Positions 1-48,767 of a stretch of DNA of 64,000 nucleotides are shown one piece after another. Origin of the DNA: a virus (Duplodnaviria; Heunggongvirae; Uroviricota; Caudoviricetes). Position 1 is the stretch's first letter, and each line of letters begins with the position of its first letter. The stretch covers positions 29,752 through 93,751 of the IMG/VR virus record IMGVR_UViG_3300037461_000469. One strand, given 5' to 3'. The notes under the pieces are model-generated. The model ran no database searches. It had not been told where the DNA came from and worked only from the letters and a program-made list of their open reading frames with translations. A program made the position numbers and the translations under genes.

Positions 1-26
1 ATCGCTTATCGGACACGTTTTTGGTA

Positions 27-212
27 TCATCCTTCACCTTTAAATTTAGCAAGCGTAGCCTTACCATAATGACACAATCGACAAGCCCGTTTCGTTAGAT
101 AAAAACCGTCAATAATCCCATCGGCTTTATACGTTAATCCAAACGTACACCTATTGCTAAATATTACAATAAATTTTTGTTTATTGTTTATTGGACACTT
201 TTTCGGTATCAT
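27..212 (-). CDS. small Cys-rich protein, member 1 of MIPKxCP(L/I)NxKxK(L/F) paralog family (putative zinc ribbon)
   Basis: ORF; N-terminus MIPKKCPINNKQKF is shared with the next three ORFs and with two ORFs elsewhere (34794..35120, 48417..48767); 4-nt start/stop overlaps with the neighbouring gene. Confidence 0.55.
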   Translation of the reverse strand: MIPKKCPINNKQKFIVIFSNRCTFGLTYKADGIIDGFYLTKRACRLCHYGKATLAKFKGEG

Positions 213-420
213 CGTCTTTTAACCCCATCCACGTCAGCCATTGTTTCATTTCCTCTTTAAAATTCGCTGTAGAGTATTTTTGTTGTCTCTTCTTCTCTGC
301 GCTGTAGGGACATTCTTTGCAGAAGGATAATTTCTCGGAAACCTCTTCCAACAGGCACTCGGTTTTGAGTGTTGCTTGGAGTTTGCTCTTATCGTTCAGA
401 GGACAGTCTTTCGGTATCAT
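181..420 (-). CDS. paralog family member 2 (MIPKDCPLNDKSKL; CxxC...CxxC)
   Basis: ORF with conserved N-terminal motif and four Cys. Confidence 0.55.
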   Translation of the reverse strand: MIPKDCPLNDKSKLQATLKTECLLEEVSEKLSFCKECPYSAEKKRQQKYSTANFKEEMKQWLTWMGLKDDDTEKVSNKQ

Positions 421-691
421 AATAGTATGTGGGAATTCCCTGTTGTTTCATCATGTCCCTTTTAAATTCTTCTACCTTCCTCTTTCTTTCTAGTTCCTTT
501 TCTAGTTCCTCTCTCAATCGTGATATTCTTTCTCTCATTACTTCTTTCTCACGCTCCAGTTGCGCATCTTTCCCGTATTGGCAATCCTTGCAATCTTCAG
601 CACCTTTTGAGTACTCTTTAATGGCGCATATGTTTTGGAGCGTGGTTTGCAGTTTGTACTTGTTGTTCAGAGGACAGGTCTTGGGTATCAT
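389..691 (-). CDS. paralog family member 3 (start moved to internal MIPKTCPLNNKYKL)
   Basis: The family motif begins at an internal Met, 27 nt inside the ORF; coiled-coil-like E/R/K-rich C-terminus. Confidence 0.5.
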   Translation of the reverse strand: MIPKTCPLNNKYKLQTTLQNICAIKEYSKGAEDCKDCQYGKDAQLEREKEVMRERISRLREELEKELERKRKVEEFKRDMMKQQGIPTYYYDTERLSSER

Positions 692-891
692 TTCTCGTTC
701 CTGATATGACGGGGGCATTTTTCACAGGGTTTCATCTTGAACTCAAAATAAATAGTGTGATTAACCCCGCCACCAACACTATACATTACATCCCCCAATA
801 ATCTAGGTTTAACACCTTCACAAAAAACCTTGGGATTTAATGCCATTATAAACCTAGCCTTCAGAGGCAGAACGCACTTTCTCGGTATCAT
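688..891 (-). CDS. paralog family member 4 (MIPRKCVLPLKARF; C-terminal CEKCPRH)
   Basis: ORF in tandem with the three above. Confidence 0.5.
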   Translation of the reverse strand: MIPRKCVLPLKARFIMALNPKVFCEGVKPRLLGDVMYSVGGGVNHTIYFEFKMKPCEKCPRHIRNEK

Positions 892-1106
892 TTTCTATTC
901 TTTTTTAGGTGGGCGATTATTCTTTCTTCCACAGCGGGGGTCGTGTAATTTCCTTCTTTTAGGAACTCTCTACAGTTCTTGTAGCGTCCATCATCATCAA
1001 AAAATATGTACGCGCAGATGTTTGTTCCTAGGGATTTACGGCAATACTTACAATGCCATTCGTCAGGGTGCAGGGCTTTCCAAAGCGTGTACTTGTCAGG
1101 CTTCAT
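888..1106 (-). CDS. hypothetical Cys-rich protein
   Basis: ORF translationally coupled to its neighbours; CKYC and NC motifs. Confidence 0.45.
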   Translation of the reverse strand: MKPDKYTLWKALHPDEWHCKYCRKSLGTNICAYIFFDDDGRYKNCREFLKEGNYTTPAVEERIIAHLKKNRK

Positions 1107-1489
1107 CCCTTTGTTTCTGTTTCGATGAACTCGGCCTTGGTGATTTCCTTAAAATCAACATCAAGAGGTTCTTGTATAACAGTTCCTCTGGCGGCTTTCC
1201 CACCAATCCAATACCCCACATTCTTGCTCAGTAAACTATGTCCTTCTTTGATGACAATTGTTTGCCAAGTGGTCTTGTCTTTTTTATAAGCATCTTGTTG
1301 TGTTTTGCGGGAAATTTCCTTCGGGAACCTGAAAATTTTTACTTCCTTCGTTACTGGGTCTTTATGATGGATGTTGTAAAGAATGTAATGGATTTGGTAG
1401 TTAAGCCACAAGTCCCTAGCCTTTTCCAATTTTTCGATACGTTCTTCTTCCGCTTTTCTCTTCTTGGTTTTAAAAAACTCTGATATCAT
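1103..1489 (-). CDS. hypothetical protein
   Basis: ORF, tightly packed. Confidence 0.5.
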   Translation of the reverse strand: MISEFFKTKKRKAEEERIEKLEKARDLWLNYQIHYILYNIHHKDPVTKEVKIFRFPKEISRKTQQDAYKKDKTTWQTIVIKEGHSLLSKNVGYWIGGKAARGTVIQEPLDVDFKEITKAEFIETETKG

Positions 1490-1491
1490 TC

Positions 1492-1809
1492 TTATCTCTC
1501 CATCTTTACGATTGATAATCCTGCCCTGTCTAAGTTGGAAAATTTTCCCACCAAGTATTCCTGTCCGTTGTTCAGGTCTTTCACGATGTAATAGGTGATA
1601 TACCCTGCTTCTCCGACTTCGCTGATGCTGATGCGGTTCGACCTGACCTGTTCCTTGACTTCCTGAACGGGCATTGTGTACCCGTTGCGATTCTCCGCTC
1701 TACCCCTTCCTTTCGGATTTAATACAAACGGGACGAGAAGGGCTATGAGGATGCCAACAATGGCAACACAAATCAAGACCTCAATCAACGTAAATCCTTT
1801 CTTCTTCAT
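1492..1809 (-). CDS. type IV pilin/pseudopilin-like protein (prepilin-type N-terminus)
   Basis: N-terminus MKKKGFTLIEVLICVAIVGILIALL matches the class III signal peptide (G|FTLIE followed by a hydrophobic helix). Confidence 0.6.
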   Translation of the reverse strand: MKKKGFTLIEVLICVAIVGILIALLVPFVLNPKGRGRAENRNGYTMPVQEVKEQVRSNRISISEVGEAGYITYYIVKDLNNGQEYLVGKFSNLDRAGLSIVKMER

Positions 1810-1825
1810 TTTTAAACTCCTTTGT

Positions 1826-2104
1826 CTAATCTTTCTTTTCTTTTTTATTTTCTCGTGTTTTCCTGTACTCTTTGAATGGCGGGAGCAAATCAGGACGGCG
1901 TTCCTTTATCGACATCAGCACCTTGTCGATGCTCAGGTTGATAAGGAAGAACTGTACGGGAAAATTGGAAGTGTCCTTCAGATTTTCTAGGTTGATAAAT
2001 TCGATTTCGGATGCGTGTATCAAGTCCTCTCCGAAGTCGGATACTGCGGTGATGATACAATCACCCAACGATTTCTTTTCTCCCTTGTTTCTGTAAGTTG
2101 CCAT
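1826..2104 (-). CDS. hypothetical protein
   Basis: ORF. Confidence 0.45.
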   Translation of the reverse strand: MATYRNKGEKKSLGDCIITAVSDFGEDLIHASEIEFINLENLKDTSNFPVQFFLINLSIDKVLMSIKERRPDLLPPFKEYRKTRENKKEKKD

Positions 2105-2317
2105 TTATTCCTCTAGGTAAACTGCCACGACTTGTTTTTGGTGGATGTTGTTAGTTGGAATCAATTGCTTGAACTCCTTCTTGATTTCATCGCACCCCTT
2201 CTGAATCCCGATGGTTTTAAATTCCTTTTCGCAAGTGCATTTGTGCTTCATTAGGAAAAACTCGTAGGCATCGTAGTCTTCGATTTCCTCGTACAAAACG
2301 TGCCTGATAACCCTCAT
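2105..2317 (-). CDS. hypothetical protein
   Basis: ORF. Confidence 0.4.
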   Translation of the reverse strand: MRVIRHVLYEEIEDYDAYEFFLMKHKCTCEKEFKTIGIQKGCDEIKKEFKQLIPTNNIHQKQVVAVYLEE

Positions 2318-2320
2318 GTT

Positions 2321-2572
2321 CTATCCTATCACAACCCGTTTGGTTTTCTTCTTTTCCTTTTCCTCGTCAATCATTCTTGCGGCAAACCCAAATTTGGTAG
2401 CGGCGTGTTCGTTCAACTCCCGAATCAGCGTTGCAGGGCAAGTGTCCCCTTTTTGACGGTCTACGATTACCCGAACTTCAGCATTTTGGTTGTAGGTTTT
2501 TAGAACTTTAATTAACGCCTTTATCGTCATTGGCCCCTCCTTAACAATATTTATTCTTTGGGGAGTCGTCAT
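2321..2572 (-). CDS. hypothetical protein
   Basis: ORF. Confidence 0.45.
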   Translation of the reverse strand: MTTPQRINIVKEGPMTIKALIKVLKTYNQNAEVRVIVDRQKGDTCPATLIRELNEHAATKFGFAARMIDEEKEKKKTKRVVIG

Positions 2573-2838
2573 TTGTAAAGAACTTCCTTCTTGAAAGAGG
2601 CCTTCAAGTACTTGACTGTCTGCACGATAAAAACACCTGATACAGCGGCAAGAGCAACGATAATCAGAAGCCTTTTGGTAACTTCAGGAAAAGAATGTAG
2701 AGTGCCGTTGATGAAGCCGATGGATGAGCCGATGAAAAAGATGCGGCCTACGTGTTTCAGGTAGGACATATCTTTCATTCCCTGCGTAGTGTTACGCTTG
2801 ATTTTCCAAATCCGATATCGCCTGATTAATTCGTTCAT
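2569..2838 (-). CDS. small membrane protein
   Basis: ORF with a hydrophobic segment; coupled to the downstream gene. Confidence 0.45.
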   Translation of the reverse strand: MNELIRRYRIWKIKRNTTQGMKDMSYLKHVGRIFFIGSSIGFINGTLHSFPEVTKRLLIIVALAAVSGVFIVQTVKYLKASFKKEVLYK

Positions 2839-3860
2839 TCTTTCTCCTTCAAAAGAAATTCGTTGTTCAGCACCTTGAAACTGATACGGCTACGCATTTT
2901 CTCGGAAAAGTCTCCGTAGGTCGCACGAACCACGATGCCTTCCCTGTCGTTCTGCGTTCCGTTGTATTTACCCTTCGCCATTTCCAAGAGTTGCTCTTGG
3001 TCGTAGTGGAATCCTTCACCCATTTGCACTAACGGGACACGCTCTAGGCCGAACATTGTAACGACCTGAAACATCCTAGGAACGGACAGATACTTTCCAT
3101 CGTCAATGTCGTACACATCGAAAACGAAAAGCGAGTGTTCGGTCAATCCCAACTTGTTCTTTTGGATTCCTGGGCCGCAAATTTCGCCCTGAATGGCGAT
3201 GTTCGCACCCCACTCCCGCATCTTCTTTTCTAAGTCGTACTTACGAGCCATCTGCCAATAGACAGAGCCTTCGCTGTCCTTCTTTTCCATATTGCGTGAG
3301 CAGACCCCGAACTCGCCACGGTTAAAGTAAATCGTGCAACTCGTCCCATCACACTTTGTCGAGATGTAGTAGGACTTGCCACGCAATTCATTAAGAACTT
3401 TGGGGACGTTCTGAATCCGCTCTTCGTCCGTTTTCGGAAACAGCGGCGGGAAATTTCCCTTGGTATCACCTTGGTTAAAGCCGCCAGGAACGGGTTTCTC
3501 GTAGTGAGTAATCCCTAGAGTGCCTGAAACGTCCTGACCGACCTCGTATTCAAGATGGGTCAGCGGCGGCAGAATTGTCAGCGGGAAAACAATCCCCTGT
3601 GAAAGCGTTCCACGAAGTTTAATCGTTTTGATGCGGAACTTTTCCTTCGCAAGAAAGGCAAACTCAGGCTTGTCGGGAACGATGGTGTCGATTTGAATAT
3701 AGACCACCGCATCACCAACTTTAAACTCACCCTTCTTGACTACCACTTGCCACCCAAGCACGTAGGCCTTTTCGATGGCATCAGCGTTTTCAATCGGCTG
3801 AATGTCGATAATTTTTTGAATTGATGCTAACATTTTTAAATCTCCTTGACCTGAATCCAA
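2835..3860 (-). CDS. ATP-dependent RNA ligase-like nucleotidyltransferase with N-terminal OB-like domain
   Basis: KxDG adenylation motif (ISTKCDGTSCTIY) in the middle of the protein; N-terminal region looks like an OB/tRNA-binding fold, as in DraRnl-type ligases. Confidence 0.55.
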   Translation of the reverse strand: MDSGQGDLKMLASIQKIIDIQPIENADAIEKAYVLGWQVVVKKGEFKVGDAVVYIQIDTIVPDKPEFAFLAKEKFRIKTIKLRGTLSQGIVFPLTILPPLTHLEYEVGQDVSGTLGITHYEKPVPGGFNQGDTKGNFPPLFPKTDEERIQNVPKVLNELRGKSYYISTKCDGTSCTIYFNRGEFGVCSRNMEKKDSEGSVYWQMARKYDLEKKMREWGANIAIQGEICGPGIQKNKLGLTEHSLFVFDVYDIDDGKYLSVPRMFQVVTMFGLERVPLVQMGEGFHYDQEQLLEMAKGKYNGTQNDREGIVVRATYGDFSEKMRSRISFKVLNNEFLLKEKE

Positions 3861-4012
3861 AAGCCACCGTAGTAGCCGTTGTGTTCGTTGTGGGTCTCAA
3901 ACACGACAGTTTCATCTTCGGCGTGAATCCGAAGGAACTGAACCTCGTTCCCGCCTAACATTTGAATCATCACACCCAATCCTAATTGTGAACTGCTCAT
4001 TTTATTTCTCCT

Positions 4013-4234
4013 TTAACTTGCTTCCGTCCATTCCTTCAGCGTCTTTGCGAAAGAATGGAGTTGACTTTCAGAACCACGCAGAACAATATGGAAATCGCTT
4101 TCAAGCCATCCCTTGCTCTCGACCCATTCAAGGTCAAGTCCGAAGAGTTTCGCCTTTTCAAATTGACTGCGCACTTGCGGACAAGTCAACCTTCCCACCG
4201 TCAGCGTAGTTTTTAAAGTCCCTACCCGTTCCAT
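4013..4234 (-). CDS. hypothetical protein
   Basis: ORF. Confidence 0.4.
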   Translation of the reverse strand: MERVGTLKTTLTVGRLTCPQVRSQFEKAKLFGLDLEWVESKGWLESDFHIVLRGSESQLHSFAKTLKEWTEAS

Positions 4235-4236
4235 TT

Positions 4237-4488
4237 TTAATACCCCGTAATTCTGCGAATCGCTTCCTTCAGTTTGAAGGCAACCTCGCCCGAAATCTCG
4301 ACAGGCTTCATCAGCGTGGCCTCGCTCACGTAGGGGCGAAGCAACTCTAAGGCTTCATTTGTTTCCTGCAACCTTTCCTTGATATCTTTTTCGTGGCAAG
4401 GCTTGCAGATGATATCGTCCTCGTTGTCAACCGAATGACTGCAACGACTGCACCAAATATCAACATCAACATCGTAACTAATAGGCAT
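4237..4488 (-). CDS. hypothetical Cys-rich protein
   Basis: ORF; CSRCSH...CKPCHEKD. Confidence 0.45.
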   Translation of the reverse strand: MPISYDVDVDIWCSRCSHSVDNEDDIICKPCHEKDIKERLQETNEALELLRPYVSEATLMKPVEISGEVAFKLKEAIRRITGY

Positions 4489-4489
4489 T

Positions 4490-4726
4490 TTATTTCTCCT
4501 TTATTCCTCTAGCTGCCACAATCGTGTCGTACATTTCGTACATCTTGTCCCACAACACGTCAAAGTTTATAGACCTAGGCGCACTATTAGCGACCAAATC
4601 TTCCAACCACTTGTAGGCCTTTTCCCTATCTTCATCAGAAGGGAGCCTATCAGCGAAGGCGTAATACTGCTCGTGGAGAATCCCCACCTTTTTCTTAAAT
4701 AGACGCTTCTTCATTTTCTTAGCCAT
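4490..4726 (-). CDS. hypothetical protein
   Basis: ORF. Confidence 0.45.
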   Translation of the reverse strand: MAKKMKKRLFKKKVGILHEQYYAFADRLPSDEDREKAYKWLEDLVANSAPRSINFDVLWDKMYEMYDTIVAARGIKEK

Positions 4727-4729
4727 TTT

Positions 4730-6016
4730 TTACTCCTCTTCCTTCTCATCATTCCACATAATGATTTTTTCACCGAACGGGAAATCCATTTCCCTATTGC
4801 TCTTCTGCAAGACCCAAAAGGTCTGCCAATTGAACTTGCCCACGGCCTTTTCGATTTGGTTCTGGTCCCCGTAACCGTCCGTGAAATAGAACAGGGCTTT
4901 GATGTCCTTGTCCTTGTTCTTCGCCAAGTCTTCGAAAACGGGGATGAAGGACGTGCCGCCACCACCCGTCAGCACCTTGTTGATGTCGTTGCGGAAATTC
5001 TTCAAGCCCTTGATACGAGCCTTGCCGTGAATCATCGAGTCGCAACCGTACAGCACGACCTCTAGGAACGGCATCATCCTGAGCATCGATTTCAGTTCAC
5101 CGATGAATTCGATGATATCGTCCTGAGAGATTGAGCCTGACGTGTCAAGAGCGAGAGCGACCTTGGCCTTCGAACCCGTCTGCCCTGGCAGATACAGGCC
5201 GTAAGGAAGGTAGGCACGGTTGACCTTGGCGGTAGTGTACTGACCACGCCCGATTTCCTGAATCTTGCGCTTGATGAACCGCTTCCAATCGACATGACCT
5301 TCCAACTCTTCCATGTACTCGTCAATGAGCCTCTGCATTTCGGCGGGAACATCGCCCTTTTCCTTTGCACTCAGACCCGAAGCGGTCTTGAAGATTTTCT
5401 TGTCGATATCGTTCATTTGGTCTTGTAAACTTTTGCCCGTCTTTTTCTTGGTACTGGCAACGCCATCGCCCGTCATTTCCGAACTCGCACCGTGGTTGTC
5501 GAACTGACCGAAATCCCCTGCGTTACCCTGCATCCGCTGATTGGACTTGCTAGGGTTTTTCTTCTGCTCTTCTTTCAGCAGGGCAAGAATTTTCTCGGCG
5601 TTCATGCCCTTGAAGGCTTCATCATACAGGATTCCCTTCGGGAACTCCAACAGGTTGTCCTTGGTAGCCATTTCGTTGATGATGATGGAGTTGATAGCGT
5701 AGTCGAGAGCGAAGTTCAACTGCTTGCGGTCAGCCTCATTCTTGATGCTGTTGTGGATGTTAAAGCGCATAAAATGCTTGAACAGGATGTGCTGAAGTTC
5801 GTGCAGAAGGCACGTCATAACCTGATTCTTGTTTAACTTTTCAACGAAATCCTTGTTGTACATAATTTTTACGTTGTCGGTTGCCATCGTGTCGATGTCA
5901 GGGCGGGTGGTTTCCTCAATCGGGAACTCCAACAGAAGTCCACCGAACAGCCGATGCCGAATCAACAGACGGCACTTGGCGTACTTGATTTTCTCAGCCA
6001 CGGTCATATTAGCCAT
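4730..6016 (-). CDS. HExxH metallopeptidase-like N-domain + von Willebrand factor A (MIDAS) domain protein
   Basis: HELQH zinc-binding motif in the N-terminal part; DTSGSIS MIDAS motif followed by TDGYGD in the C-terminal part; driven by a consensus promoter at 6044..6072. Confidence 0.6.
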   Translation of the reverse strand: MANMTVAEKIKYAKCRLLIRHRLFGGLLLEFPIEETTRPDIDTMATDNVKIMYNKDFVEKLNKNQVMTCLLHELQHILFKHFMRFNIHNSIKNEADRKQLNFALDYAINSIIINEMATKDNLLEFPKGILYDEAFKGMNAEKILALLKEEQKKNPSKSNQRMQGNAGDFGQFDNHGASSEMTGDGVASTKKKTGKSLQDQMNDIDKKIFKTASGLSAKEKGDVPAEMQRLIDEYMEELEGHVDWKRFIKRKIQEIGRGQYTTAKVNRAYLPYGLYLPGQTGSKAKVALALDTSGSISQDDIIEFIGELKSMLRMMPFLEVVLYGCDSMIHGKARIKGLKNFRNDINKVLTGGGGTSFIPVFEDLAKNKDKDIKALFYFTDGYGDQNQIEKAVGKFNWQTFWVLQKSNREMDFPFGEKIIMWNDEKEEE

Positions 6017-6043
6017 TATTTCGTCTCCTTTATCATCATTAAT

Positions 6044-6072
6044 ATTATAGCAAATAAAACCCTATTTGTCAA
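6044..6072 (-). promoter_or_regulatory. sigma70-type promoter, TTGACA-N17-TATAAT
   Basis: The reverse complement reads TTGACAaatagggttttatttgcTATAAT, upstream of the VWA gene. Confidence 0.7.
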
Positions 6073-6116
6073 GGGTTTTTGTACCTAAATTATCCTTTGA
6101 TATCGGCTTTTCTTGC

Positions 6117-6554
6117 TTACTTATCATCTTTTTTCCAAACGAATTTGTCGCAAACCTCAGTAGGCAGGGATTCGTGAAATAATTCGTTAGATTCAAACGT
6201 AATATTTTTCTCGTAGTTTTCGTTGTCGAACGGGCAGGGCTTCGAATCGAGGCGAAGGCCGTCCCAATTGACGCACTTTTCGCACATCGGCAGGTCGTGC
6301 TTTAACTTGGATTGTAAGCGAATTTTTTCCTTCAACGGGAAGAGTTTCCGCTCACGGTCAGCCAACTCTTTAATGTCGTTGTAGATTTCAAGGCCAAACA
6401 TTTCACGGAAACGCTTGACCCCGATTCTGTGCATTTCTTTGATTAGGTCGTTGATTTCCTTGTCCTTGTGAAAGGTCTTTTCCCTGCGCTTTTCCAAGTC
6501 TTCGATATCTTCCGAACCCCAAACTCCGTGCGGATTAAAAATACTGTTAGCCAT
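6117..6554 (-). CDS. hypothetical protein
   Basis: ORF. Confidence 0.5.
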   Translation of the reverse strand: MANSIFNPHGVWGSEDIEDLEKRREKTFHKDKEINDLIKEMHRIGVKRFREMFGLEIYNDIKELADRERKLFPLKEKIRLQSKLKHDLPMCEKCVNWDGLRLDSKPCPFDNENYEKNITFESNELFHESLPTEVCDKFVWKKDDK

Positions 6555-7012
6555 TATTTACTCCTAGGAGCCGATTCGAACCTACGGCAGACGGAATAAC
6601 GCCACCTAGTTCCTGAGCGTCTCAGCACGAGCGTGTCTTTGCACCCTTCGGGCGGGTCAGTCGTGAACGTGCCATCGGGAAGCCATCTGCCACCCTGCCG
6701 AATTTCTTTCCCGTTCGCATCAAGCCTGACCACGTTAAATCTCAGGTAGGCGTGGTAGGGAACTCCTTTGTACTTGAAACAGTACCAACGCCATTTCTCA
6801 GGCGCAGGGGCGGGATTCAGATTACCGCCACTAATAAATTGCTGATGGGTAGGCCTTCCACCCACGATATTTCTCCAACAGAATTTGCAATTGTCGCAAC
6901 TGAGAAAATCCGATTTAAAAGACTTACCCTGTAATTTCAGGGAAAGTTCAATCTTCCTCAATGCTTCTGATTCGCCTAATAATCTTTTACTCATAATTCT
7001 ATGATAGCACAT
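6554..7012 (-). CDS. hypothetical protein
   Basis: ORF. Confidence 0.5.
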   Translation of the reverse strand: MCYHRIMSKRLLGESEALRKIELSLKLQGKSFKSDFLSCDNCKFCWRNIVGGRPTHQQFISGGNLNPAPAPEKWRWYCFKYKGVPYHAYLRFNVVRLDANGKEIRQGGRWLPDGTFTTDPPEGCKDTLVLRRSGTRWRYSVCRRFESAPRSK

Positions 7013-7092
7013 TTTTTCGTGTTTGTCAAGCCCTGTCTATATTATACCACATCTTGAAGCAAAACAATAAATACTAGTAGGAGTTCAGAACT

Positions 7093-7407
7093 ATGTTAAA
7101 AGCAAAGATATTGAGAGAAGCAAATGCCCCTGCACCGGCCGCACCCGCTCAGGCCGCACCCGCCCAACAAGCCCCTGCACAGTCCGCTCCCGCACCCGCC
7201 CAACAAGCCCCTGCACAGGCAGACCCAAAACAGGCACAGGCGATGGTGGATTTAATCGTTAAAATCATAACGCCAATTATCCAAAAGACGATTCAAGATG
7301 CTTTGAAACAGGCACAGCCAAAAGCCCCTGCCGCTCCTGCCAAGCAACCCGCCCCTGCTCAAAAACCCGCTCAGGCTCCTGCACAGAAACAACCCGCCGC
7401 TAAATAA
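7093..7407 (+). CDS. low-complexity Ala/Pro/Gln-repeat protein (APAQ repeats)
   Basis: Plus-strand ORF with RBS AGGAG 6 nt upstream; sequence dominated by repeated APAQ/AQAP units flanking a central helical segment. Confidence 0.5.
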   Translation: MLKAKILREANAPAPAAPAQAAPAQQAPAQSAPAPAQQAPAQADPKQAQAMVDLIVKIITPIIQKTIQDALKQAQPKAPAAPAKQPAPAQKPAQAPAQKQPAAK

Positions 7408-7408
7408 T

Positions 7409-7942
7409 TTACCTTTTAACGACAACTAGTTGTGTTTTGATTTTCGGACTTTCCAACGATTTAACGGCTTCAATATTTCTTTCGCTATCATCGTAAAACC
7501 GCACATCATCGTAATCATCCAATCGGGACAGAATTGCGTTCTTTTTCAGTCTCGCTAGTTCCTCGCCTGTTGCTCCCTTTTTACCCCCCACGATTATCAG
7601 GCGGTCAGGGTCAACCCACTTCGACAGGAACTCGCGCAAGCCGCTTGTGTTCGGCCTAGCGGTTAAAATCATAATATCCGAATCACCGCCCACTATTTTG
7701 CGGAAGGCGGTCTTCAGAAAATTGGTAGGTTTCGGATTAATCAATCCCCCTTGCTCAAAATCAGAAAGGTCGATTTTATCGTCAGGTTCGACTTTGTAAT
7801 CGGCAAATTCCTGTGTCGATAAGGATAGGCCTTTGTTCGGGATTCTGATTTTAGCATCGGTGGTTGCCAGGCAATCATCGAAATCAAATACACGGAGTTT
7901 TCTTTTTATTTTTTTAAATTTCATATTATTAAATCTCTCCAA
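7409..7942 (-). CDS. HAD-superfamily hydrolase (possible polynucleotide phosphatase)
   Basis: HAD motif I VFDFDDCLA (DxD), with later ILTARP and GGDSD motifs. Confidence 0.5.
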   Translation of the reverse strand: MERFNNMKFKKIKRKLRVFDFDDCLATTDAKIRIPNKGLSLSTQEFADYKVEPDDKIDLSDFEQGGLINPKPTNFLKTAFRKIVGGDSDIMILTARPNTSGLREFLSKWVDPDRLIIVGGKKGATGEELARLKKNAILSRLDDYDDVRFYDDSERNIEAVKSLESPKIKTQLVVVKR

Positions 7943-8613
7943 CTTTCATTATTTTTTATTCTGTAAAATTGTTTTTTAGAAATATTAAAATAACTAAAAA
8001 TTTCTTTTCTAGGAATTTTATTTTCGTTTATCAATTTCCTAATTTCGATTACGTTTTCTTTTGTTAGTTTAGCATTGGGATTGGTTTCCCCTTTCAATTT
8101 TTCTTTTACTTTTGGGTATTCTTGTAAAAATATTCTTCTTTTTTCTGATTGTAATTTTTTGGTTTTTTCAAGATGTTTTTTCCCCCAAAAAGGATGTTGT
8201 TTTCCTCTCATTTCTTTAGGGTGTTCTTTTAAATATTTTTTCCTTTTTTCCTTCATTAGATTTTTAGTTTCTTGTGATGGTGTCCAACCTAAACTACCTT
8301 CTCCACCTTCTGTTAAATTCCAACCTATTTTTTGTTTAGGGTCATAAGTATTTCTATTTTTAATTTGAAATTTTTCTCTAAGAAAAAGTAATTTTTCAAA
8401 TTCTTTTTCATTTCCTGTGTTTTTATGAACTTCTAAAATTTTGAAACAATTTTTATCAATTGGGAAATATTTTCTTAATGCATTATGGAAATATTTATTA
8501 GAATTTTTTACATTAAAATGGTCTTTAAATCGTTGTTTTAAATCAAAAGTAATCCCTACATATTCTTTATTACAAATTTTGAAAACATAAATAAATCCCC
8601 AATTAATCATCAC
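7921..8613 (-). CDS. GIY-YIG homing endonuclease
   Basis: GFIYVF...YVGIT...R...H GIY-YIG module; repeated NUMOD3-like basic motifs; AT-rich island. Confidence 0.75.
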   Translation of the reverse strand: MMINWGFIYVFKICNKEYVGITFDLKQRFKDHFNVKNSNKYFHNALRKYFPIDKNCFKILEVHKNTGNEKEFEKLLFLREKFQIKNRNTYDPKQKIGWNLTEGGEGSLGWTPSQETKNLMKEKRKKYLKEHPKEMRGKQHPFWGKKHLEKTKKLQSEKRRIFLQEYPKVKEKLKGETNPNAKLTKENVIEIRKLINENKIPRKEIFSYFNISKKQFYRIKNNESWRDLII

Positions 8614-8622
8614 TTGTATTTA

Positions 8623-9216
8623 TCAGAACGGGTCATCGTACTTATTTTTTTCGGACGGTTCCCAAGTGTTGTAATTGCTTTTTAACTTTTCCTGCCAAGC
8701 CTTGCGTCTCTCCATCAGTTTGTCTTTTAAAGACCACCCAAAGGGTACTTCTTCAGTCTCAGCCTTGTAAATTTCATCCGCAACTTTTTGGGCTTCATCC
8801 AAGTCCTCTTCGATTGTCGCATTAGTGTTGTCTATTTTCCCTTTCATGGCCTCTAAGGATGTTTCGGCCTTGCGCTTGTTTCCGTTCAGCGTCCGTTCCA
8901 ACTTTTCCTTTAAGAACTTGCTCTTGGTTTTCTCCGCTTTCTTGATGGAATCGTCCGTAATCTTTTTAAACGTTTCTTCTAGGACGCTTCGCAGATTGTC
9001 GGTGTTGCGTACCATCTGCTTGTTGTCCACCCTAGTCTGCAATTGCGGTTCGGTCAGCGTGGTAATCACGCCCGTTGTTGCCTGTTTCATTTCGTAGACT
9101 ATCTTGTGGCCTACGGCTGAGGCCAGGATGTTGTTGATAGACCAAACAGTAACGTTTCCCGCCCTGCTGACGGCGTAGAAAACATCGTCTAAGTTAAACT
9201 GCGTTGTCAGTTCCAT
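8623..9216 (-). CDS. hypothetical protein
   Basis: ORF. Confidence 0.5.
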   Translation of the reverse strand: MELTTQFNLDDVFYAVSRAGNVTVWSINNILASAVGHKIVYEMKQATTGVITTLTEPQLQTRVDNKQMVRNTDNLRSVLEETFKKITDDSIKKAEKTKSKFLKEKLERTLNGNKRKAETSLEAMKGKIDNTNATIEEDLDEAQKVADEIYKAETEEVPFGWSLKDKLMERRKAWQEKLKSNYNTWEPSEKNKYDDPF

Positions 9217-9835
9217 CGTCCTTCACTTTCTTGGTCGGCGGGACGAACCGCTTGGGTTGCGGAAGGCCAAGGCGATTGTAAACCTCAGTCTCAATCTCGT
9301 CAATCTTCGCTCTTACGGGCTTGTAGGCCGTCTCTTCGATGTTGTCGAGAGCCTTCTGCATAATGTCGGGAAGGTTGACGCTGAAAGGCTTGCCCTTGTT
9401 CTCAGGAAGGTTGGCAATCTCGTTCAGTTTCTTTTCCAACATTTTCTTGACCGTCCGTTCGTTCGTGAACGGGTCGAGTTTTGTTTTCCACTCCCGCTTC
9501 ATATTCGGGATGATGCCCCTGTCCTTGTCTAGCCAAGAATCCTTGGTCGGCGGGGTCTGCATTTTCTTGACTTGGGTGAGCGTATCGTCCACCCGCTTCA
9601 CGAACCGATTAACGTCCTTAATCTCGTCCGTGTCCTCGTAGGCCTTCCAAAAGTCGTAGGGGACATCAAGGGCTGGCGGGGTCGGACGCAAAGAGAGCGT
9701 TTCGGCAAGTTCCTGCGCTCGTTGTTCTCTCTGCTCAGGCAGGAGGCTGTCGTAATCGAGTTCTTTAAAACTGTTCCACACAGTCCGCTTCTGCTCTTCC
9801 AACTCTTGCTCTATCGTTTTGTCATTTTCGTCCAT
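9194..9835 (-). CDS. hypothetical protein
   Basis: ORF downstream of consensus promoter 9852..9880. Confidence 0.5.
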   Translation of the reverse strand: MDENDKTIEQELEEQKRTVWNSFKELDYDSLLPEQREQRAQELAETLSLRPTPPALDVPYDFWKAYEDTDEIKDVNRFVKRVDDTLTQVKKMQTPPTKDSWLDKDRGIIPNMKREWKTKLDPFTNERTVKKMLEKKLNEIANLPENKGKPFSVNLPDIMQKALDNIEETAYKPVRAKIDEIETEVYNRLGLPQPKRFVPPTKKVKDDGTDNAV

Positions 9836-9851
9836 TTTTTACCTATAGTTT

Positions 9852-9880
9852 AGTATATCATAAAATGATAGACTTGTCAA
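9852..9880 (-). promoter_or_regulatory. sigma70-type promoter, TTGACA-N17-TATACT
   Basis: Reverse complement CTTGACAagtctatcattttatgaTATACT. Confidence 0.6.
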
Positions 9881-10071
9881 GCGTTGTTGGCTTCGCCTTC
9901 GCCAAAAATTTCCTTGGAAAGAAGCGATACTCGCTCCTTTTCGAACGTCCGAATTTCATCGTACAGGGCATCCATATCCCTCTGCGTCCTGTTCTTATCG
10001 GCAAAGAGAGCCTGAACCTTTTTAAGAAGTTCGGTCTGCTTCTCTTCGATTTCCTTCAACGACATTATCAT
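9877..10071 (-). CDS. hypothetical protein
   Basis: ORF. Confidence 0.4.
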   Translation of the reverse strand: MIMSLKEIEEKQTELLKKVQALFADKNRTQRDMDALYDEIRTFEKERVSLLSKEIFGEGEANNA

Positions 10072-10391
10072 TTGCGTCTCCTATTAACTTTTCTTTGCTT
10101 CCTAGCGACCTTCGCCGCCTTCGCCCTCTTCGCCGCTTTCTTTTGGAGTTGCTGATTCCGCAGATTGGCCTTGAAGCGAATCTTCATCACCCTCTCTTCG
10201 TAAAGAGCCTTCATCTTTTCAAGTTGCTCCTTCTGAGCGGGAGACATCTTCGACAGGACGGTTTCTTCGTCTATCGGCTGTTTAACCTTTTCTTTGTTCT
10301 TTTTTTTGGGTACGGTATAGGGGATTATATCCTCTGCAAGTTCTTTAAGTTTTTTTTCTTTCTCTTCGAGAGTTCTAGTATCGTCTTCCAT
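10068..10391 (-). CDS. Lys-rich basic protein
   Basis: ORF; very basic C-terminus. Confidence 0.45.
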   Translation of the reverse strand: MEDDTRTLEEKEKKLKELAEDIIPYTVPKKKNKEKVKQPIDEETVLSKMSPAQKEQLEKMKALYEERVMKIRFKANLRNQQLQKKAAKRAKAAKVARKQRKVNRRRK

Positions 10392-21940: not shown

Positions 21941-23491
21941 ATGTTTCAAAGCCTATTTGAATATTCCAACAACGGGATTGTGATTACAACCCCTGTTGAT
22001 AACGGAAATAACTTTGTTATCAAAGACATCAACCCCGAAGCCGAAAAAATAGAAAAAATAAAGAAGGAAGATGCTGTCGGTAAACTGATAACAGAGATTT
22101 GGCCCGGAATAGAAAGTTTTAGTCTGCTTACCACGATGCGAAATGTGTACAAAACGGGGAAGGGTGAACAACACCCTACTTCATTTTATCAGGACGAACG
22201 CATTTCAGGCTGGCGTGAGAACTTTGTTTACAAGGCCAAGACAGGCGAAATCGTCAATATCTATTATGACCGCACGGAAGAGAAAACGATAGAGATTAAA
22301 AACGCTTCCATCATCAAGGCACTTCCTGATTTATTTTTCAGATTCAGCGAAGATGGTACATATTTGGATTGTTGGACTAGCAATCCAAAACTTCTTATTC
22401 AACCAAAGGAAGATTTTATCGGCAAGAAACTAGAGGAAGTCCTACCGAAAGATATTGCTGATGGAGCGTATAAATTAATCAGGGAAGTTGTTGAAACAAA
22501 AGAACCTAGAAGTTTTGAGTACGAATTGGTTTTGTATGGCGGCAAGAGATATTTTGAATCACGATTGGTTTTCGATTCCGACCATACGGTGATGGCAATT
22601 GTAAGGGATGTTACCGACAAGATAGAGATGGTCGGTAAGTTGACGGAGAGCGAACAAAAATTCCGAAAGATTTTCAAGACAAGTCCTGATGCCATTCTGC
22701 TCACTTCTGTTGTGGATGGAAAAATTCTTGATGTCAACGAAGCGGGGGTGGCACTCACGGGATATACGTTGGATGAAATGTTAGGAAAGACAACAATTGA
22801 AATGGAATTTTGGTTTGATATAGAAGAAAGAAGTAAATATATTCAAAAATTATTGACAGAAAAACAAATTAATAACTACGAAGCAAAATTCAGGACAAAA
22901 CATGGAATAATTGATACTATGATTTCTGGAGAAATCATGGAAATTAATGGACAAAATTATTTCGTTTCTATTATTCGCAACGTTAGTGATTTGAGAAAAA
23001 TAAACAGGGAACTAAAATTCAGTCAGGAAAAGTTTAAGGATATTGTTGAAAACATTTCTGAAATTGTTGTTGAAATGGATAAAGATTACACGGTTACTTT
23101 TGTGAATAGTGGAATATATCATGTTACAGGATATACACCCGAAGAAATAATTGGTAAAGATTGGACACATTTCTTTACTGAAGAAACTCGTACTAAATGC
23201 CAAAGTCTTCATAAAGAAATGGTAAGAAGGAAAAATAGTTCGATATACAATTGTATTGCCGATTTCATAACAAAGACAGATGAAATTAAAATTTTAAGTG
23301 TCCAATTCAGAATTGCATTTATGAATGGTAGTGGGACAAAGACATATATGGTTGCCCGGGATGTTACCGAAGAGGAGATGGAAAAAAGAGAGAAAAAATT
23401 AGTTGAAGATAAATTGAAAGATGAGTTCCGAGAAACCTTATCCCGCATTGGTGCGGACTTAAAAAATATGACAAGTAGAGGAGAAAGATAA
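21941..23491 (+). CDS. multi-PAS-domain protein (about 4 tandem PAS folds, no output domain)
   Basis: Repeated PAS-like segments; good RBS AGGAG upstream. Confidence 0.6.
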   Translation: MFQSLFEYSNNGIVITTPVDNGNNFVIKDINPEAEKIEKIKKEDAVGKLITEIWPGIESFSLLTTMRNVYKTGKGEQHPTSFYQDERISGWRENFVYKAKTGEIVNIYYDRTEEKTIEIKNASIIKALPDLFFRFSEDGTYLDCWTSNPKLLIQPKEDFIGKKLEEVLPKDIADGAYKLIREVVETKEPRSFEYELVLYGGKRYFESRLVFDSDHTVMAIVRDVTDKIEMVGKLTESEQKFRKIFKTSPDAILLTSVVDGKILDVNEAGVALTGYTLDEMLGKTTIEMEFWFDIEERSKYIQKLLTEKQINNYEAKFRTKHGIIDTMISGEIMEINGQNYFVSIIRNVSDLRKINRELKFSQEKFKDIVENISEIVVEMDKDYTVTFVNSGIYHVTGYTPEEIIGKDWTHFFTEETRTKCQSLHKEMVRRKNSSIYNCIADFITKTDEIKILSVQFRIAFMNGSGTKTYMVARDVTEEEMEKREKKLVEDKLKDEFRETLSRIGADLKNMTSRGER

Positions 23492-29363: not shown

Positions 29364-29392
29364 AATTATATCACAAAAAACTACATTTGTAA
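29364..29392 (-). promoter_or_regulatory. sigma70-type promoter, TTTACA-N17-TGtgaTATAAT
   Basis: Embedded in the 3' end of the radical SAM gene. Confidence 0.55.
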
Positions 29393-30556
29393 AGCCCTTG
29401 GCGGTGGGCAATTTTTCTTCTCTAGTCGGAACTTTTTAACGGTTGCAAACTTTCTTGCGTTGTCTAGAAATTCTTCCTTGGTGTGTCCAATCCAATTAAA
29501 AATGTTGTGGCTCGTGGTTACAGGCAGAAAGCCGTGCATGAAGGTGTAGAGGCGCACCATTCCCGTTACCAAGTCCTTGTCCCACTTTGACCCGATGTAG
29601 TTGTTACGGGTCAGAGCATCTAGCGGTTCGAACCTCTGCGGGAACAGGAATATCGTGCGCCCTACCTTGTCCGTCATTTCCTGAGCCATCACAATACGCT
29701 TCCAAAAATCATCAGGGCTGTCAACCCAATTGAAAAGCATATAACAGAAGAATCCCGCCTTGATTTGGTGCTTCTCAGCGAGTTTCAAAGCCCTCAGAAT
29801 GTGTGCCTGATATCCCACGAAATCGAACGAAAATCTCATGTAGGCCGTTCCTGCCTCGTGCTGTGCGCCCCACTTCAATCGGGCGAACCTTTCGGCCTGA
29901 TGGTCGGTGAAGGATGAAACGTGAAGGCCGTGAATGTCAATCGGCAAGCCGTACTCTTCCAATTCATCGCAGATTTTGTCGAAGTACTGATGCTCCGTGA
30001 AGTTGTTGTCGTAGAGGACAATGCCTGACGGGTCTTTGATTTCCTTCAATCCGTTGTCGAGCATCGGCCTGATGGACGGGAACGAGCGCATACACCCCTC
30101 TAGTTTTGAAACGGCGCAGTACTTGCAAGCGTTCGTGCAACCACGGCTTGCGTAGCCGACAATCTTCTTCGACCACGGTGCGATGGAGTACTTCAGCGGC
30201 AAGTCTTCAATTTCGGGATAGATGCCCTCGTGGATTTCGGCAAAAGATAAATTCTCCTTGAACCACTGGGGATTCAGGGTTGGAAATGCGCCGCCTACTA
30301 GGAACCGAGCCTTGGGAAAAAGGTTCTTGTAGTGAACTAGGGTTTCCCGATACTCCTTGCTGTAGAACGAGAAAATGCAACTCATTACAACAAGGTCGGG
30401 AGTTATTTTCGGATTAATCCGCTTGCCGTTTTCGTCCTTCCATCCCGTGATGTACCTGAAGGTGTGATGATGCTTCTCAGCCCATGTAGCGAACTTTAAC
30501 ATCGCTAGATTCGGGGCGATACGCTTCACATCGGCTTCAACTAGTAGAATGTGCAT
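29381..30556 (-). CDS. radical SAM domain protein
   Basis: CxxxCxxC motif GCTNACKYCA. Confidence 0.6.
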   Translation of the reverse strand: MHILLVEADVKRIAPNLAMLKFATWAEKHHHTFRYITGWKDENGKRINPKITPDLVVMSCIFSFYSKEYRETLVHYKNLFPKARFLVGGAFPTLNPQWFKENLSFAEIHEGIYPEIEDLPLKYSIAPWSKKIVGYASRGCTNACKYCAVSKLEGCMRSFPSIRPMLDNGLKEIKDPSGIVLYDNNFTEHQYFDKICDELEEYGLPIDIHGLHVSSFTDHQAERFARLKWGAQHEAGTAYMRFSFDFVGYQAHILRALKLAEKHQIKAGFFCYMLFNWVDSPDDFWKRIVMAQEMTDKVGRTIFLFPQRFEPLDALTRNNYIGSKWDKDLVTGMVRLYTFMHGFLPVTTSHNIFNWIGHTKEEFLDNARKFATVKKFRLEKKNCPPPRALQM

Positions 30557-34705: not shown

Positions 34706-34793
34706 TGGCGATGGGTGAAGGAGTTGAACCTCCGCTACTGTTACGTAGGCTTCGGTTTAGCAAACCGACACATTACCGCTCTGTCAACCCACC
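34706..34793 (-). tRNA. tRNA-Ser(GCT), type II
   Basis: AC TCGGT-TTGCTAA-ACCGA; long variable arm; CCA encoded. Confidence 0.7.
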
Positions 34794-35120
34794 CTATTTT
34801 TTCTTAGTCCACACGAACCCTAAAAGCAAACGATGTATTTTCCTATGAAACCAATTGGGAATTTTTCCATTCGGGGGTTCAACAGTTATACAACCACCAA
34901 ATAAAGAACAATGCCAATCCCCTGGCGAAGTGGTTACTGTATAAATGGGCATATAAGGGGAGTTCAAGATTTTTTCATCAGAGGACTTGGTAAAATGACA
35001 CCCCTTACAACAATCAAAAACTTCTTGGTTAGAAAAATGAATATCATATTCGGGACAACTTGAATGTAAAATATTTTTCAATTTTGTTTTTTTAGTAAGA
35101 GGACACTTTTTACTAATCAT
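34794..35120 (-). CDS. MIPKxCPL paralog family member 5
   Basis: MISKKCPLTKKTKLKNILHSSC N-terminus; its stop abuts the 5' end of tRNA-Ser. Confidence 0.5.
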   Translation of the reverse strand: MISKKCPLTKKTKLKNILHSSCPEYDIHFSNQEVFDCCKGCHFTKSSDEKILNSPYMPIYTVTTSPGDWHCSLFGGCITVEPPNGKIPNWFHRKIHRLLLGFVWTKKK

Positions 35121-35158
35121 TTATTATCCTGTTTATATTATATCATATTTTGTTTTTT

Positions 35159-35241
35159 CGGAAAGAGCAAGATTCGAACTTGCGGGTCTTTCGACCTTCC
35201 GCTTTCCAAGCGGATGCAATAGACCGCTCTGCCATCTCTCC
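35159..35241 (-). tRNA. tRNA-Ser(GGA), type II
   Basis: AC TCCGC-TTGGAAA-GCGGA; T-arm GCAAG-TTCGAAT-CTTGC. Confidence 0.7.
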
Positions 35242-35244
35242 ATT

Positions 35245-35499: not shown

Positions 35500-36147
35500 T
35501 TATTTTTCGTAAAACATAGGACTAGGATAATGATGCAACATGAACTGATTCTGCACAGTCGAATGTGTCGGATAGTTGTAGCATATATGGGGGTTGATAC
35601 AATACACGTTCATTCCCTTTTGTAAGTCCCTGAGTAATGCATCGAACGGGGCAGGGAACCTGTCATACATAACGATAATTCTGTCGTAAATTCTCTTGTT
35701 GATGATTACGCCGTGTACGCCGAAAGCGGATATTACTTTGTACACGTTCTTACAGATTCGTACAGGCCTGTAGCCGTCTTGGTCTGTATGCGCACCCGCA
35801 AGATACAACATATCCCAATCCTTCGGAACTGCTTCTAGAAAGCCTTCCAAATGCTCGTTGAAATCATCCACGAGAATCAAATCATCTTCAAACAAGGCAA
35901 CTGCTCTAGAGTGATAATACTTGCGTATAATTCGCTTGTATGATTCCAAACACCCGAAGGCATTTAGGCCGTGGCGGGTGATGTCTTCGGCGGGATACAT
36001 ATGTTCTACGTCTTTCCCCGCAATTGCGGGAAAAAGTTCAGCCGTGATTCCCAACTTGTTAAATTGGATGTTCATATGATTTGTCTTGAACTCGTTTAGG
36101 CTGAGTAGAACAACGTTATCAACGATTGTGTGTAAAATGCTTTTCAT
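35500..36147 (-). CDS. glycosyltransferase family 25-like protein
   Basis: N-terminus VLLSLNEFKTNHMNIQFNKLGITAELFPAIAGKD resembles the GT25 start. Confidence 0.45.
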   Translation of the reverse strand: MKSILHTIVDNVVLLSLNEFKTNHMNIQFNKLGITAELFPAIAGKDVEHMYPAEDITRHGLNAFGCLESYKRIIRKYYHSRAVALFEDDLILVDDFNEHLEGFLEAVPKDWDMLYLAGAHTDQDGYRPVRICKNVYKVISAFGVHGVIINKRIYDRIIVMYDRFPAPFDALLRDLQKGMNVYCINPHICYNYPTHSTVQNQFMLHHYPSPMFYEK

Positions 36148-47774: not shown

Positions 47775-48041
47775 CTATTTATTATCCTTATTTAAAAATT
47801 CAATACAACTTCCAAAGTATATAAATTTAGGTTTGTGGGTTTCATCGTATACCCCATCGATTGTTCCTATTGTTTTACCACCATCGTGAGATTGATAATA
47901 AAAATATCTTCGGTATCCTTTAAAAAGGCATCGACCAAATTGAAAATGACGACAAGAGGTTTTTTGACAATCTGCTATAGTTCTGTTTCCGTGTAAAATG
48001 CTGTATAGTTTTAATTTCTTCAGCAATTTTTCATTTGTCAT
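47775..48041 (-). CDS. hypothetical protein
   Basis: ORF. Confidence 0.4.
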   Translation of the reverse strand: MTNEKLLKKLKLYSILHGNRTIADCQKTSCRHFQFGRCLFKGYRRYFYYQSHDGGKTIGTIDGVYDETHKPKFIYFGSCIEFLNKDNK

Positions 48042-48416: not shown

Positions 48417-48767
48417 TTAAAACACACGGCGCATATATCGCACCCAATTCTTGAATTTGTCAAGAACATTGGGCTTGCGATAGGCTTCCGCTGTACGGCC
48501 TGAATATCCTGACCAGCCTGAATATCCTGACCAGCCCGAATATCCCCACATCACATTCAAAGTACAATTTTTACAATCGGGAAAATTAAAATATTCTGAA
48601 TTGGGGTCTTTGTAATCCCAATTTTGGTTTACTTTAATTAAAGAAGTCGTTTTTTGAGTGTCGTTGTCATCCAACTGACTGCACATTTCGGCGTGTAAGA
48701 CAAGATACAGTTTGCGCTTGTTCGAAAGAGGGCAACCCTTGTGAAACATAAAATTCTTCTTTTCCAT
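48417..48767 (-). CDS. MIPKxCPL paralog family member 6 with GYSGWS tandem repeats
   Basis: FHKGCPLSNKRKLYLVLHAEMC N-terminus; three 15-nt tandem repeats encode (GYSGWS)n. Confidence 0.5.
   Translation of the reverse strand: MEKKNFMFHKGCPLSNKRKLYLVLHAEMCSQLDDNDTQKTTSLIKVNQNWDYKDPNSEYFNFPDCKNCTLNVMWGYSGWSGYSGWSGYSGRTAEAYRKPNVLDKFKNWVRYMRRVF

Follow-up and report, generated by a model that had tools for sequence, protein, structure and literature searches.

Small accessory proteins that are encoded in tandem, share an N-terminus and diversify beyond it are of a familiar general kind in T4-type phages. In the hypervariable locus of the T4 internal proteins (IPI, IPII and IPIII), tandem small genes carry a common N-terminal capsid-targeting sequence (CTS). 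Prochlorosin-type precursors of ribosomally synthesised and post-translationally modified peptides (RiPPs) are multi-copy proteins with a conserved leader and a variable core, and assembly of the sheath is initiated by the baseplate protein gp25/TssE, which offers a domain like that of the sheath protein. Here we describe a family of small cysteine-rich proteins encoded in a 64,000-nucleotide stretch of Caudoviricetes DNA (IMG/VR record IMGVR_UViG_3300037461_000469, positions 29,752 to 93,751; this whole stretch is called 'the window' below). Its members consist of a constant four-cysteine head and a variable C-terminal tail, and some of the tails are homologous to segments of the T4-type major capsid protein (gp23) or tail sheath protein (gp18). 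These surprising tails occur mostly in relatives of the phage and not in the window's own copies.

The family resembles the T4 internal proteins in its tandem genes, conserved N-terminus, unrelated C-termini and cassette turnover, all in the setting of T4-type accessory or arms-race proteins, but it has a 40-residue four-Cys domain, no (L/I)xE site and no sequence similarity to them. Like the prochlorosin-type RiPPs, it occurs in many tandem copies whose N-terminal part is conserved while the C-terminal part varies; it differs in having cysteines arranged as in a metal site, no adjacent recognised maturase, and tails homologous to structural proteins. One tail class is homologous to gp18 residues 555-643, which relates it to the C-terminal domain of gp18 and the sheath-like domain of gp25/TssE, but here the segment follows a four-Cys head without the remainder of the sheath protein, and the genes of this class lie outside the window, among replication genes.

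Virion proteins are known both as triggers of immunity and as targets of interference. The Gol peptide, in the first quarter of T4 gp23, triggers the Lit abortive-infection protease (PMC3014915), and a capsid protein directly activates CapRel, a precedent for the capsid as an immune trigger (PMC9712102). One tail class of the family aligns to gp23 residues 97-133, the most conserved stretch of that first quarter; unlike Gol, the family segment is a free-standing tail on a small protein, and the class has no member in the window. Tab (PMC10884400) and Tai (PMC11364771) interfere with assembly between phages and thus provide a precedent for small mobile-element proteins acting on another phage's virion assembly. 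They have no sequence relationship to the family, are not described as structural-protein fragments, and are encoded by prophages or satellites, not by lytic giant phages. Proteins in which a constant head is joined to fragments of capsid or sheath have, as far as we know, not been described, and none turned up in a literature search.

Family members and selection on the shared N-terminus

The window has 43% guanine plus cytosine and carries 35 tRNA genes, as well as genes for a large terminase subunit, two RNA ligases, a DNA ligase, a CCA-adding enzyme and a nicotinate phosphoribosyltransferase, and comes from a large phage. A family profile built from 79 family N-termini was scored against all 1,499 open reading frames (ORFs) of the window. 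Six ORFs, all on the minus strand, gave expectation values (E) from 3.8e-9 to 3.4e-17, and the runner-up gave E = 0.098, a gap that excludes a chance match. These are the ORFs that an earlier sequence-only reading had grouped into a family of six, with four in tandem; the coordinates were confirmed, and the phage has six tandem and two dispersed copies. A six-frame motif scan located the start of the fifth tandem copy (MIPKTCPISD...) at 1..30 on the minus strand, from where it runs past the left window edge. It is complete on the overlapping Logan contig L001 (2989-3210; 73 residues, E = 3.9e-15) and is followed there by a sixth copy of 77 residues (P0004), outside the window on its left.

In array order on L001, the tandem copies are 67, 100, 79, 61, 73 and 77 residues long. 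In the 67-residue protein (688..891, minus strand; E = 3.8e-9), an insert of 31 residues separates the second Cys from the CxxC, and the orthologue of this protein in the related contig L003 gives a ratio of nonsynonymous to synonymous substitution rates (dN/dS) of 0.19. The 100-residue copy (389..691, minus strand; E = 5.6e-17) has a Lys/Glu-rich, coiled-coil-like tail and orthologues with dN/dS of 0.40 in the related contig L002 and 0.21 in L003. The mechanically called ORF of this third gene extends to 718, whereas the family start is at 691, where the ATG and the upstream stop share the bases ATGA. The 79-residue copy (181..420, minus strand; E = 3.4e-17; dN/dS 0.23 for the L002 orthologue) ends in an amphipathic W..W.G tail, and its final 32 nucleotides are shared with the next copy in a different frame. 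That next copy (27..212, minus strand; 61 residues, MIPKKCPINNKQKF...; E = 5.3e-14) overlaps the following start as ATGA and has no orthologue in L002 or L003. Overall, the array junctions comprise three ATGA stop/start overlaps and two at which the upstream gene enters the next copy by 32 nucleotides in another frame. Such gene chaining accounts for the near-invariant ATG-ATA starts and for the frequent '..ND(S/T)' ends of members elsewhere.

The two dispersed copies had both been placed near tRNA genes, which is true of one. The 108-residue copy at 34794..35120 (minus strand; E = 1.1e-13), with a tail containing SPYMPIYTV, lies inside the tRNA cluster, where it abuts tRNA-Ser 34706-34793 and stands 38 bases downstream of tRNA-Ser 35158-35242. 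The 116-residue copy at 48417..48767 (minus strand; E = 3e-12) is 5.7 kilobases (kb) from its nearest tRNA. It has a 35-residue loop and six extra residues (MEKKNF) before the motif, which are kept in the orthologue P0028, and it carries the (GYSGWS) repeats already remarked upon in the sequence-only reading. These are encoded by an 18-nucleotide tandem repeat at 48498..48545 (2.7 copies, 96% matches; WGYSGWSGYSGWSGYSG). The borderline profile match (E = 0.098) is an 88-residue ORF at 47775..48041 on the minus strand (MTNEKLLKKLKLYSILHGN...), which is without the first Cys and may be a degenerate family relative.

Conservation at the shared N-terminus was found to act on the protein. Among the eight paralogues of this phage, the proportions of synonymous (pS) and nonsynonymous (pN) differences over codons 2-14 are 0.79 and 0.33, and across paralogue comparisons of the motif pS is 0.73-0.81 against a pN of 0.32-0.42, so that synonymous sites are saturated. 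Pairwise identity over codons 2-21 of the eight paralogues is 0.54, 0.62 and 0.34 at codon positions 1, 2 and 3; in the paralogue motif comparisons overall, third positions are 0.34-0.38 identical compared with 0.54-0.66 at positions 1 and 2, and the Pro, Lys, Leu and Cys codons of the motif differ synonymously between copies. In 10 of 11 orthologue pairs with L002 and L003, dN/dS is 0.19-0.43, the remaining pair giving 0.68. The family genes are thus translated and under purifying selection. Were the N-terminus instead a nucleotide-level element (a promoter or translation-initiation cassette, as the sequence-only reading had itself considered, or a recombination site, with the ORFs incidental), the nearly invariant ATG-ATA at the starts, where adjoining genes overlap, would fit; this preference is, however, explained by the ATGA stop/start overlaps. 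Codon positions 1 and 2 are conserved and third positions close to random, the DNA upstream of the copies shows no conservation when compared between copies, and the distal CxxC is retained across loops of varying length. A DNA-level repeat is refuted by the codon-position pattern and dN/dS, and the chance that we attach to such an element is negligible.

Altogether, 122 unique family proteins were examined (55-153 residues, median 80), of which 110 fit the pattern C-x15-18-C-x6-39-CxxC. The consensus of the roughly 40-residue head is M-I-P-K-x-C-P-L-x-D-K-x-K-L-x3-L-x3-C ... C-x-x-C-x-Y/F. The first Cys is present in 109 of the 110 members, the spacing between the first and second Cys is exactly 15 in 96, an aromatic residue (Y/F) stands two residues past the CxxC in 95, and the head begins at residue 1 in 106; in one member it starts 34 residues from the called start. 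An alignment of 79 sequences shows no variation at C22, C34 and C37 and at least 90% conservation at C6. The sole replacement of the first Cys among the 110, by Arg, was seen in the L002 orthologue of the sixth copy, in a 223-kb relative of the phage (10678-10929, P0005; MLLKSRELS compared with MILKSCELS). The head is rich in Lys, with a mean net charge of +1.7.

Several details of the sequence-only reading needed correction here. Its almost identical 14-residue start is a common motif, but the copy at 688..891 reads C-V-L where the motif has C-P-L, and that at 48417..48767 has the six-residue extension. The second Cys, given as 6-7 residues beyond the motif, follows it by 8-10 residues, 15-17 after the first Cys, at residue 22-24. 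The distal CxxC was correctly seen. The proposed two-knuckle zinc ribbon was rejected: there is a single CxxC, a predicted helix lies in the 15-residue interval between the other two Cys, no beta-hairpin core is predicted, and no similarity to known zinc ribbons was found. AlphaFold2 modelled the head with helices at residues 10-19, 25-28 and 32-35 and zero strands, at moderate confidence; the mean predicted local distance difference test score (pLDDT) was 59.5 from 11 sequences and 67.7 from 79 sequences. Zinc ribbons and small Cys4 zinc fingers also have four conserved Cys within about 40 residues and a CxxC followed by an aromatic residue, but the family head has one knuckle and a helical model.

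A Foldseek search of the head model against the PDB gave 0 matches, there was no match to PDB sequences, a Pfam scan of 79 heads gave no consistent family, and Pfam and PHROGs searches with the six window proteins gave nothing meaningful. The family was thus rightly called unrecognised, and by all tests applied the head is a new domain. The four Cys are nearly invariant in 110 members, which makes metal binding a reasonable inference, and the loop between the second Cys and the CxxC varies while all four Cys stay, as fits a folded metal site; the head therefore probably binds metal through its four Cys.

Tails homologous to capsid and sheath segments

A profile of six family members matched residues 97-133 of T4 gp23 (E = 5e-8), and a profile of eight other members matched residues 555-643 of T4 gp18 (E = 4e-8), with weaker matches to the Afp and Pvc sheath proteins. 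We take Gol to lie at about gp23 residues 93-122. Capsid and sheath profiles were then built from 25 genes each, taken from ordinary T4-like loci. Capsid-type tails map to four regions of the capsid profile (positions 77-123, 208-260, 296-328 and 386-405 of 447; E to 1e-15), and sheath-type tails to positions 542-638 of 652 of the sheath profile (E to 1e-19). The 122 members include 24 capsid-type and 13 sheath-type proteins (about 30%). Capsid-type tails correspond to single conserved secondary-structure elements, and sheath-type tails stop 2-4 residues past the conserved C-terminal domain of gp18, without its last approximately 16 residues. The nearest example to the window is P0004, the sixth tandem copy just to its left, whose tail '...RANYLIVSPTVADVL' corresponds to capsid positions 302-328 (E = 2e-3). 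The SPYMPIYTV tail of the copy at 34794..35120 aligns at the capsid-profile position of the 'YxPYIPV' tails, at chance level.

All tails were also compared as single sequences with 14,697 ORFs from the surroundings of T4-like capsid and sheath genes; apart from one family member (on L084, a contig of a 239-kb phage), every match was to a capsid or sheath protein. Profile searches of the PDB and PHROGs gave nothing for the GVTFDAET, W..W.G, IKIE and Thr-rich tail classes or for the coiled-coil and GYSGWS tails, the tails of the copies at 34794 and 48417 included. Head and tail are conserved jointly, P0034 and the L084 copy being 75% identical over residues 1-75.

Two explanations of the similarity were rejected. 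As only stretches of 17-50 residues align to the capsid profile, in proteins of 55-153 residues, the members are fragments and not T4-type major capsid proteins (PF07068, an HK97 fold of about 450 residues). Nor are they split or intron-interrupted capsid or sheath genes: they lie among replication genes, have Lys-rich termini of their own and are not collinear with capsid. No four-Cys head was found in about 160 ordinary T4-like capsid and sheath loci. When the capsid protein closest among those sampled was used to look for these phages' own capsid gene, its sole match was the small gene of the 239-kb contig.

A second type of Cys-rich head (MKPDKY..HCKYCRK..NC) was recognised by ORF and translation at 888..1106 on the minus strand. 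This 72-residue protein heads the array and is joined to it by ATGA. Its homologue in the 239-kb relative (contig L183, reverse strand 6842-7102; MKxDKYxLWKxLHPxExHCxYCRK...NC) has the capsid fragment DAGIFYTPYIPVQIIKK at its end, which shows that more than one head type can carry fragment tails.

Distribution, array turnover and genomic context

Word-indexed protein searches recovered members from few metagenomic contigs only (9 proteins in the broad alignment), so that an exhaustive profile search was needed for the wider family. This search covered 1.84 billion protein representatives and yielded 72 clusters at E <= 1e-3, the match nearly always starting from residue 1. All traceable members come from metagenomic phage contigs. 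A degenerate DNA motif pattern matched 22 metagenome contigs and 4 viral-contig stretches, and the fetched loci held 76 profile matches, typically in tandem arrays of 2-6. The protein encoded at 389..691 is on record on a 168,828-nucleotide Joint Genome Institute (JGI) contig and has a 78%-identical relative on a 222,974-nucleotide contig; at least two arrays (L164, L165) were found in this 223-kb relative. In the 239-kb phage, IMGVR_UViG_3300014204_000109, five copies form an array (L167/L183) and two more adjoin the DNA polymerase gene (L084).

No member was found in cultured phages by tblastn of the consensus head against 50,697 phage records, and blastn of window positions 1-8000 against the same number of deposited phage genomes gave no match. 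In 185,579 bacterial and archaeal species, represented by one genome each, the pattern found no genuine member; its single match was due to chance, in an alternative frame of a cellular radical S-adenosylmethionine (radical-SAM) gene. The family thus belongs to uncultivated T4-related giant phages and was previously unannotated.

The tandem diversification that had been read from the window is real. The array is a-b-c-d-e-f in this phage, b-c-e-f in L002 and a-b-e-x-f in L003, so whole cassettes are gained and lost between close relatives, plausibly through unequal exchange between similar 5' ends. Elsewhere, the genes are found among replication and transcription functions: the L084 copies, of the capsid type, lie between clamp loader and DNA polymerase, and those on L166 between a gp55-like late sigma factor, an SbcD-like nuclease and a primase. 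The L084 DNA polymerase (6469-10098, plus strand; 1,209 residues) contains LAGLIDADG-like motifs (LAGLVYTDGS, LSGLLDGDGC) in its translation, which suggests an intein, and a GIY-YIG-like gene is located nearby.

In nine fetched loci, the family gene or array is followed immediately downstream by a gene for a protein of about 130 residues with an HExxH motif (L001; L002/L165, which are one locus; L003; L169; L170; L175; L184; L187; L189). On L001 it encodes 128 residues (3494-3880) directly after the tandem array, just to the left of the window. In L183 it is about 0.6 kb downstream of the array, with a gene for a 241-residue HELTH protein between them. Besides the invariant H-E-x-x-H, the protein has further invariant His and Glu residues. 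Three homologues matched PF13699 (eCIS_core/DUF4157), mainly around the motif, at E = 0.09-0.26 and 12-13 bits, below the cut-off of 22, and no PDB sequence match was found. The region around the HExxH gene and the arrays is syntenic among these phages.

Four perfect sigma-70-type promoters (TTGACA-17-TATAAT with the TG of an extended -10 element) were predicted by consensus match in the window, each of them on the minus strand. Of the strong promoters upstream of the array, the closest (6072-6044, within 6044..6079) has its -35 element in the loop of a stem-loop (AAAACCCTTGACAAATAGGGTTTT), an arrangement reminiscent of the 'promoter early stem-loop' cassettes of T4-type phages. It heads an unbroken minus-strand gene run ending in the array 5.2 kb downstream, and terminator prediction gave no strong minus-strand candidate from there to base 891. 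Two further perfect matches (42520-42548 and 42687-42715) head the tRNA cluster with the copy at 34794..35120, and the fourth is at about 54187. A weaker match (10/12) lies just upstream of the copy at 48417..48767, with a strong terminator after the next gene. These matches suggest that the family genes are transcribed early by host RNA polymerase.

Other genes of the window were noted in passing. The minus-strand gene run that ends in the array also encodes a 105-residue protein with a type IV pilin-like N-terminal methylation motif (1492-1809, minus strand; Pfam N_methyl, E = 5e-9). The 35-gene tRNA cluster holds an ARAGORN-predicted tRNA with a four-base anticodon (caga; 39578-39653, minus strand), to which ARAGORN assigned no amino-acid identity and which could be frameshift-suppressor-like or otherwise unusual; a family-25 glycosyltransferase gene (35500-36147, minus strand) is embedded in the same cluster. 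Three radical-SAM proteins are encoded on the minus strand (29381-30556, 48932-50044 and 57005-58027), that at 48932-50044 being lysine-2,3-aminomutase-like and directly upstream of the GYSGWS copy. At 47348-47767 (minus strand), a 139-residue protein matches ART-PolyVal ADP-ribosyltransferases at E = 4e-7, just above the Pfam cut-off. A 516-residue protein with several PAS sensor domains, unusual for a phage, is encoded at 21941-23491 on the plus strand, in a small plus-strand block with the terminase, and a sialyltransferase-like protein (PHROG 4603, E = 1e-31) at 62642-63985 on the minus strand.

Possible roles of the family

We tentatively read the family proteins as molecular mimics of virion-protein segments, with a probability of roughly 35% for the two forms of this reading taken together. 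The constant head of about 40 residues would fold around a metal ion held by the four Cys, and the variable tail would give each copy its specificity by occupying a partner that normally recognises the copied segment. Candidates for the partner are a host immune sensor that responds to capsid or sheath protein and the unassembled subunits of a T4-like competitor in a co-infection. The common head would stabilise the protein or provide a shared effector or docking function, with the small HExxH protein as a possible docking partner. It is a speculation that sheath-type tails, which end before the last approximately 16 residues of gp18, would suit the capping of a competitor's growing chain. A more elaborate version, in which the phage would display a 'bait library' of the best conserved, and hence most immunogenic, segments of its own capsid and sheath proteins on the metal-stabilised head early in infection, pre-occupying host sensors or handing them to the HExxH protein as a protease, appears rather unlikely to us; if true, it would be a general and evolvable counter to capsid- and tail-triggered abortive infection. 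An anti-defence or host-takeover role, as proposed by the sequence-only reading, would be compatible with the predicted sigma-70-type promoters and the capsid- and sheath-fragment tails of the relatives.

Several observations weigh against mimicry. None of the six complete copies in the window has a significantly capsid- or sheath-like tail, and only about 30% of tails in the family are recognisable as such pieces. Core identity is 48% within the family, 47.5% between the family and capsid proteins, and 76.5% among capsid proteins; the capsid-like tails thus evolve faster than real capsid proteins, which could mean that constraint is relaxed and not that mimicry is maintained. Neither the window nor the family loci contain capsid and sheath genes of these phages, and their own capsid genes were not among the matches listed in the viral-contig motif scan; the T4-type replication and late-transcription genes nevertheless suggest that these phages possess gp23- and gp18-type virion proteins themselves. 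Early expression is predicted from consensus promoter matches, the head model reaches only moderate confidence (pLDDT 68), and, given the synteny of the whole region, the HExxH linkage may be inherited gene order in one phage clade, not functional coupling.

Alternatively, the proteins could help the phage to assemble its own virions: by way of an interface element of capsid or sheath they would start, cap or chaperone polymerisation, much as gp25/TssE starts the sheath. That the sheath-type tails cover the conserved C-terminal domain of gp18 (555-643) without its end, and that the capsid-type tails are single structural elements, would suit such helpers. We nevertheless consider them unlikely, because the family genes lie in replication and tRNA regions behind sigma-70-type promoters and not in structural modules, because copy number and composition vary between close relatives in a way unusual for essential assembly factors, and because about 160 ordinary T4-like capsid and sheath loci, as well as cultured phages, do without any member. 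Small zinc-finger regulators that bind nucleic acid or a polymerase, with the tails as effector or oligomerisation peptides, would leave the copying of capsid and sheath unexplained, and no similarity to zinc-finger, DksA/TraR-type or other regulators was found in Pfam or the PDB; this too seems unlikely, even though the four-Cys head is Lys-rich and positively charged (mean +1.7), the proteins are small and probably early, and several tails look like coiled coils or amphipathic helices.

Distinctly improbable in our judgement are packaged proteins, for which the N-terminus would be a capsid-targeting signal like the T4 CTS, through which variable cargo enters the head and later passes to the next host. 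A common N-terminus on tandem small genes, a divergent remainder and turnover recall the T4 internal-protein locus, but the common part here is a 40-residue Cys domain and not a peptide of about 10 residues, no conserved (L/I)-x-E follows it, and one member has its head 34 residues from the called start. RiPP precursors, in which the conserved part would be a leader and the variable part a core, cleaved by the HExxH protein or altered by a radical-SAM enzyme, are very improbable: the Cys span a loop of 6-39 residues, fitting a folded metal site and not a leader, distant phages share conserved tail classes that have homology to segments of gp23 and gp18, no recognised maturase lies beside the arrays in L001, L002, L003, L183 and L175, and the HExxH protein falls below every Pfam threshold. 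What speaks for precursors is the combination of conserved head, variable tails and tandem copies, the HExxH gene downstream of many arrays, and the position of the GYSGWS copy (48417..48767) next to the lysine-2,3-aminomutase-like radical-SAM gene. The probability left after these readings falls to something else.

Tandem arrays of small proteins with fast turnover are where phages keep weapons against hosts and rivals, and most of them lack a handle for study. In this family the constant head makes the members searchable, and some of the tails can be traced to capsid and sheath proteins. If the proteins should instead be ordinary zinc-finger regulators, the head would still be a new domain restricted to uncultivated T4-related giant phages. 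If the mimicry proposed here is true, a virus recycles pieces of its virion as decoys or competitors, and the tails would point to capsid and sheath epitopes relevant to host sensors or to assembly, such as the Gol region, which already connects the T4 capsid protein with EF-Tu and the Lit protease.

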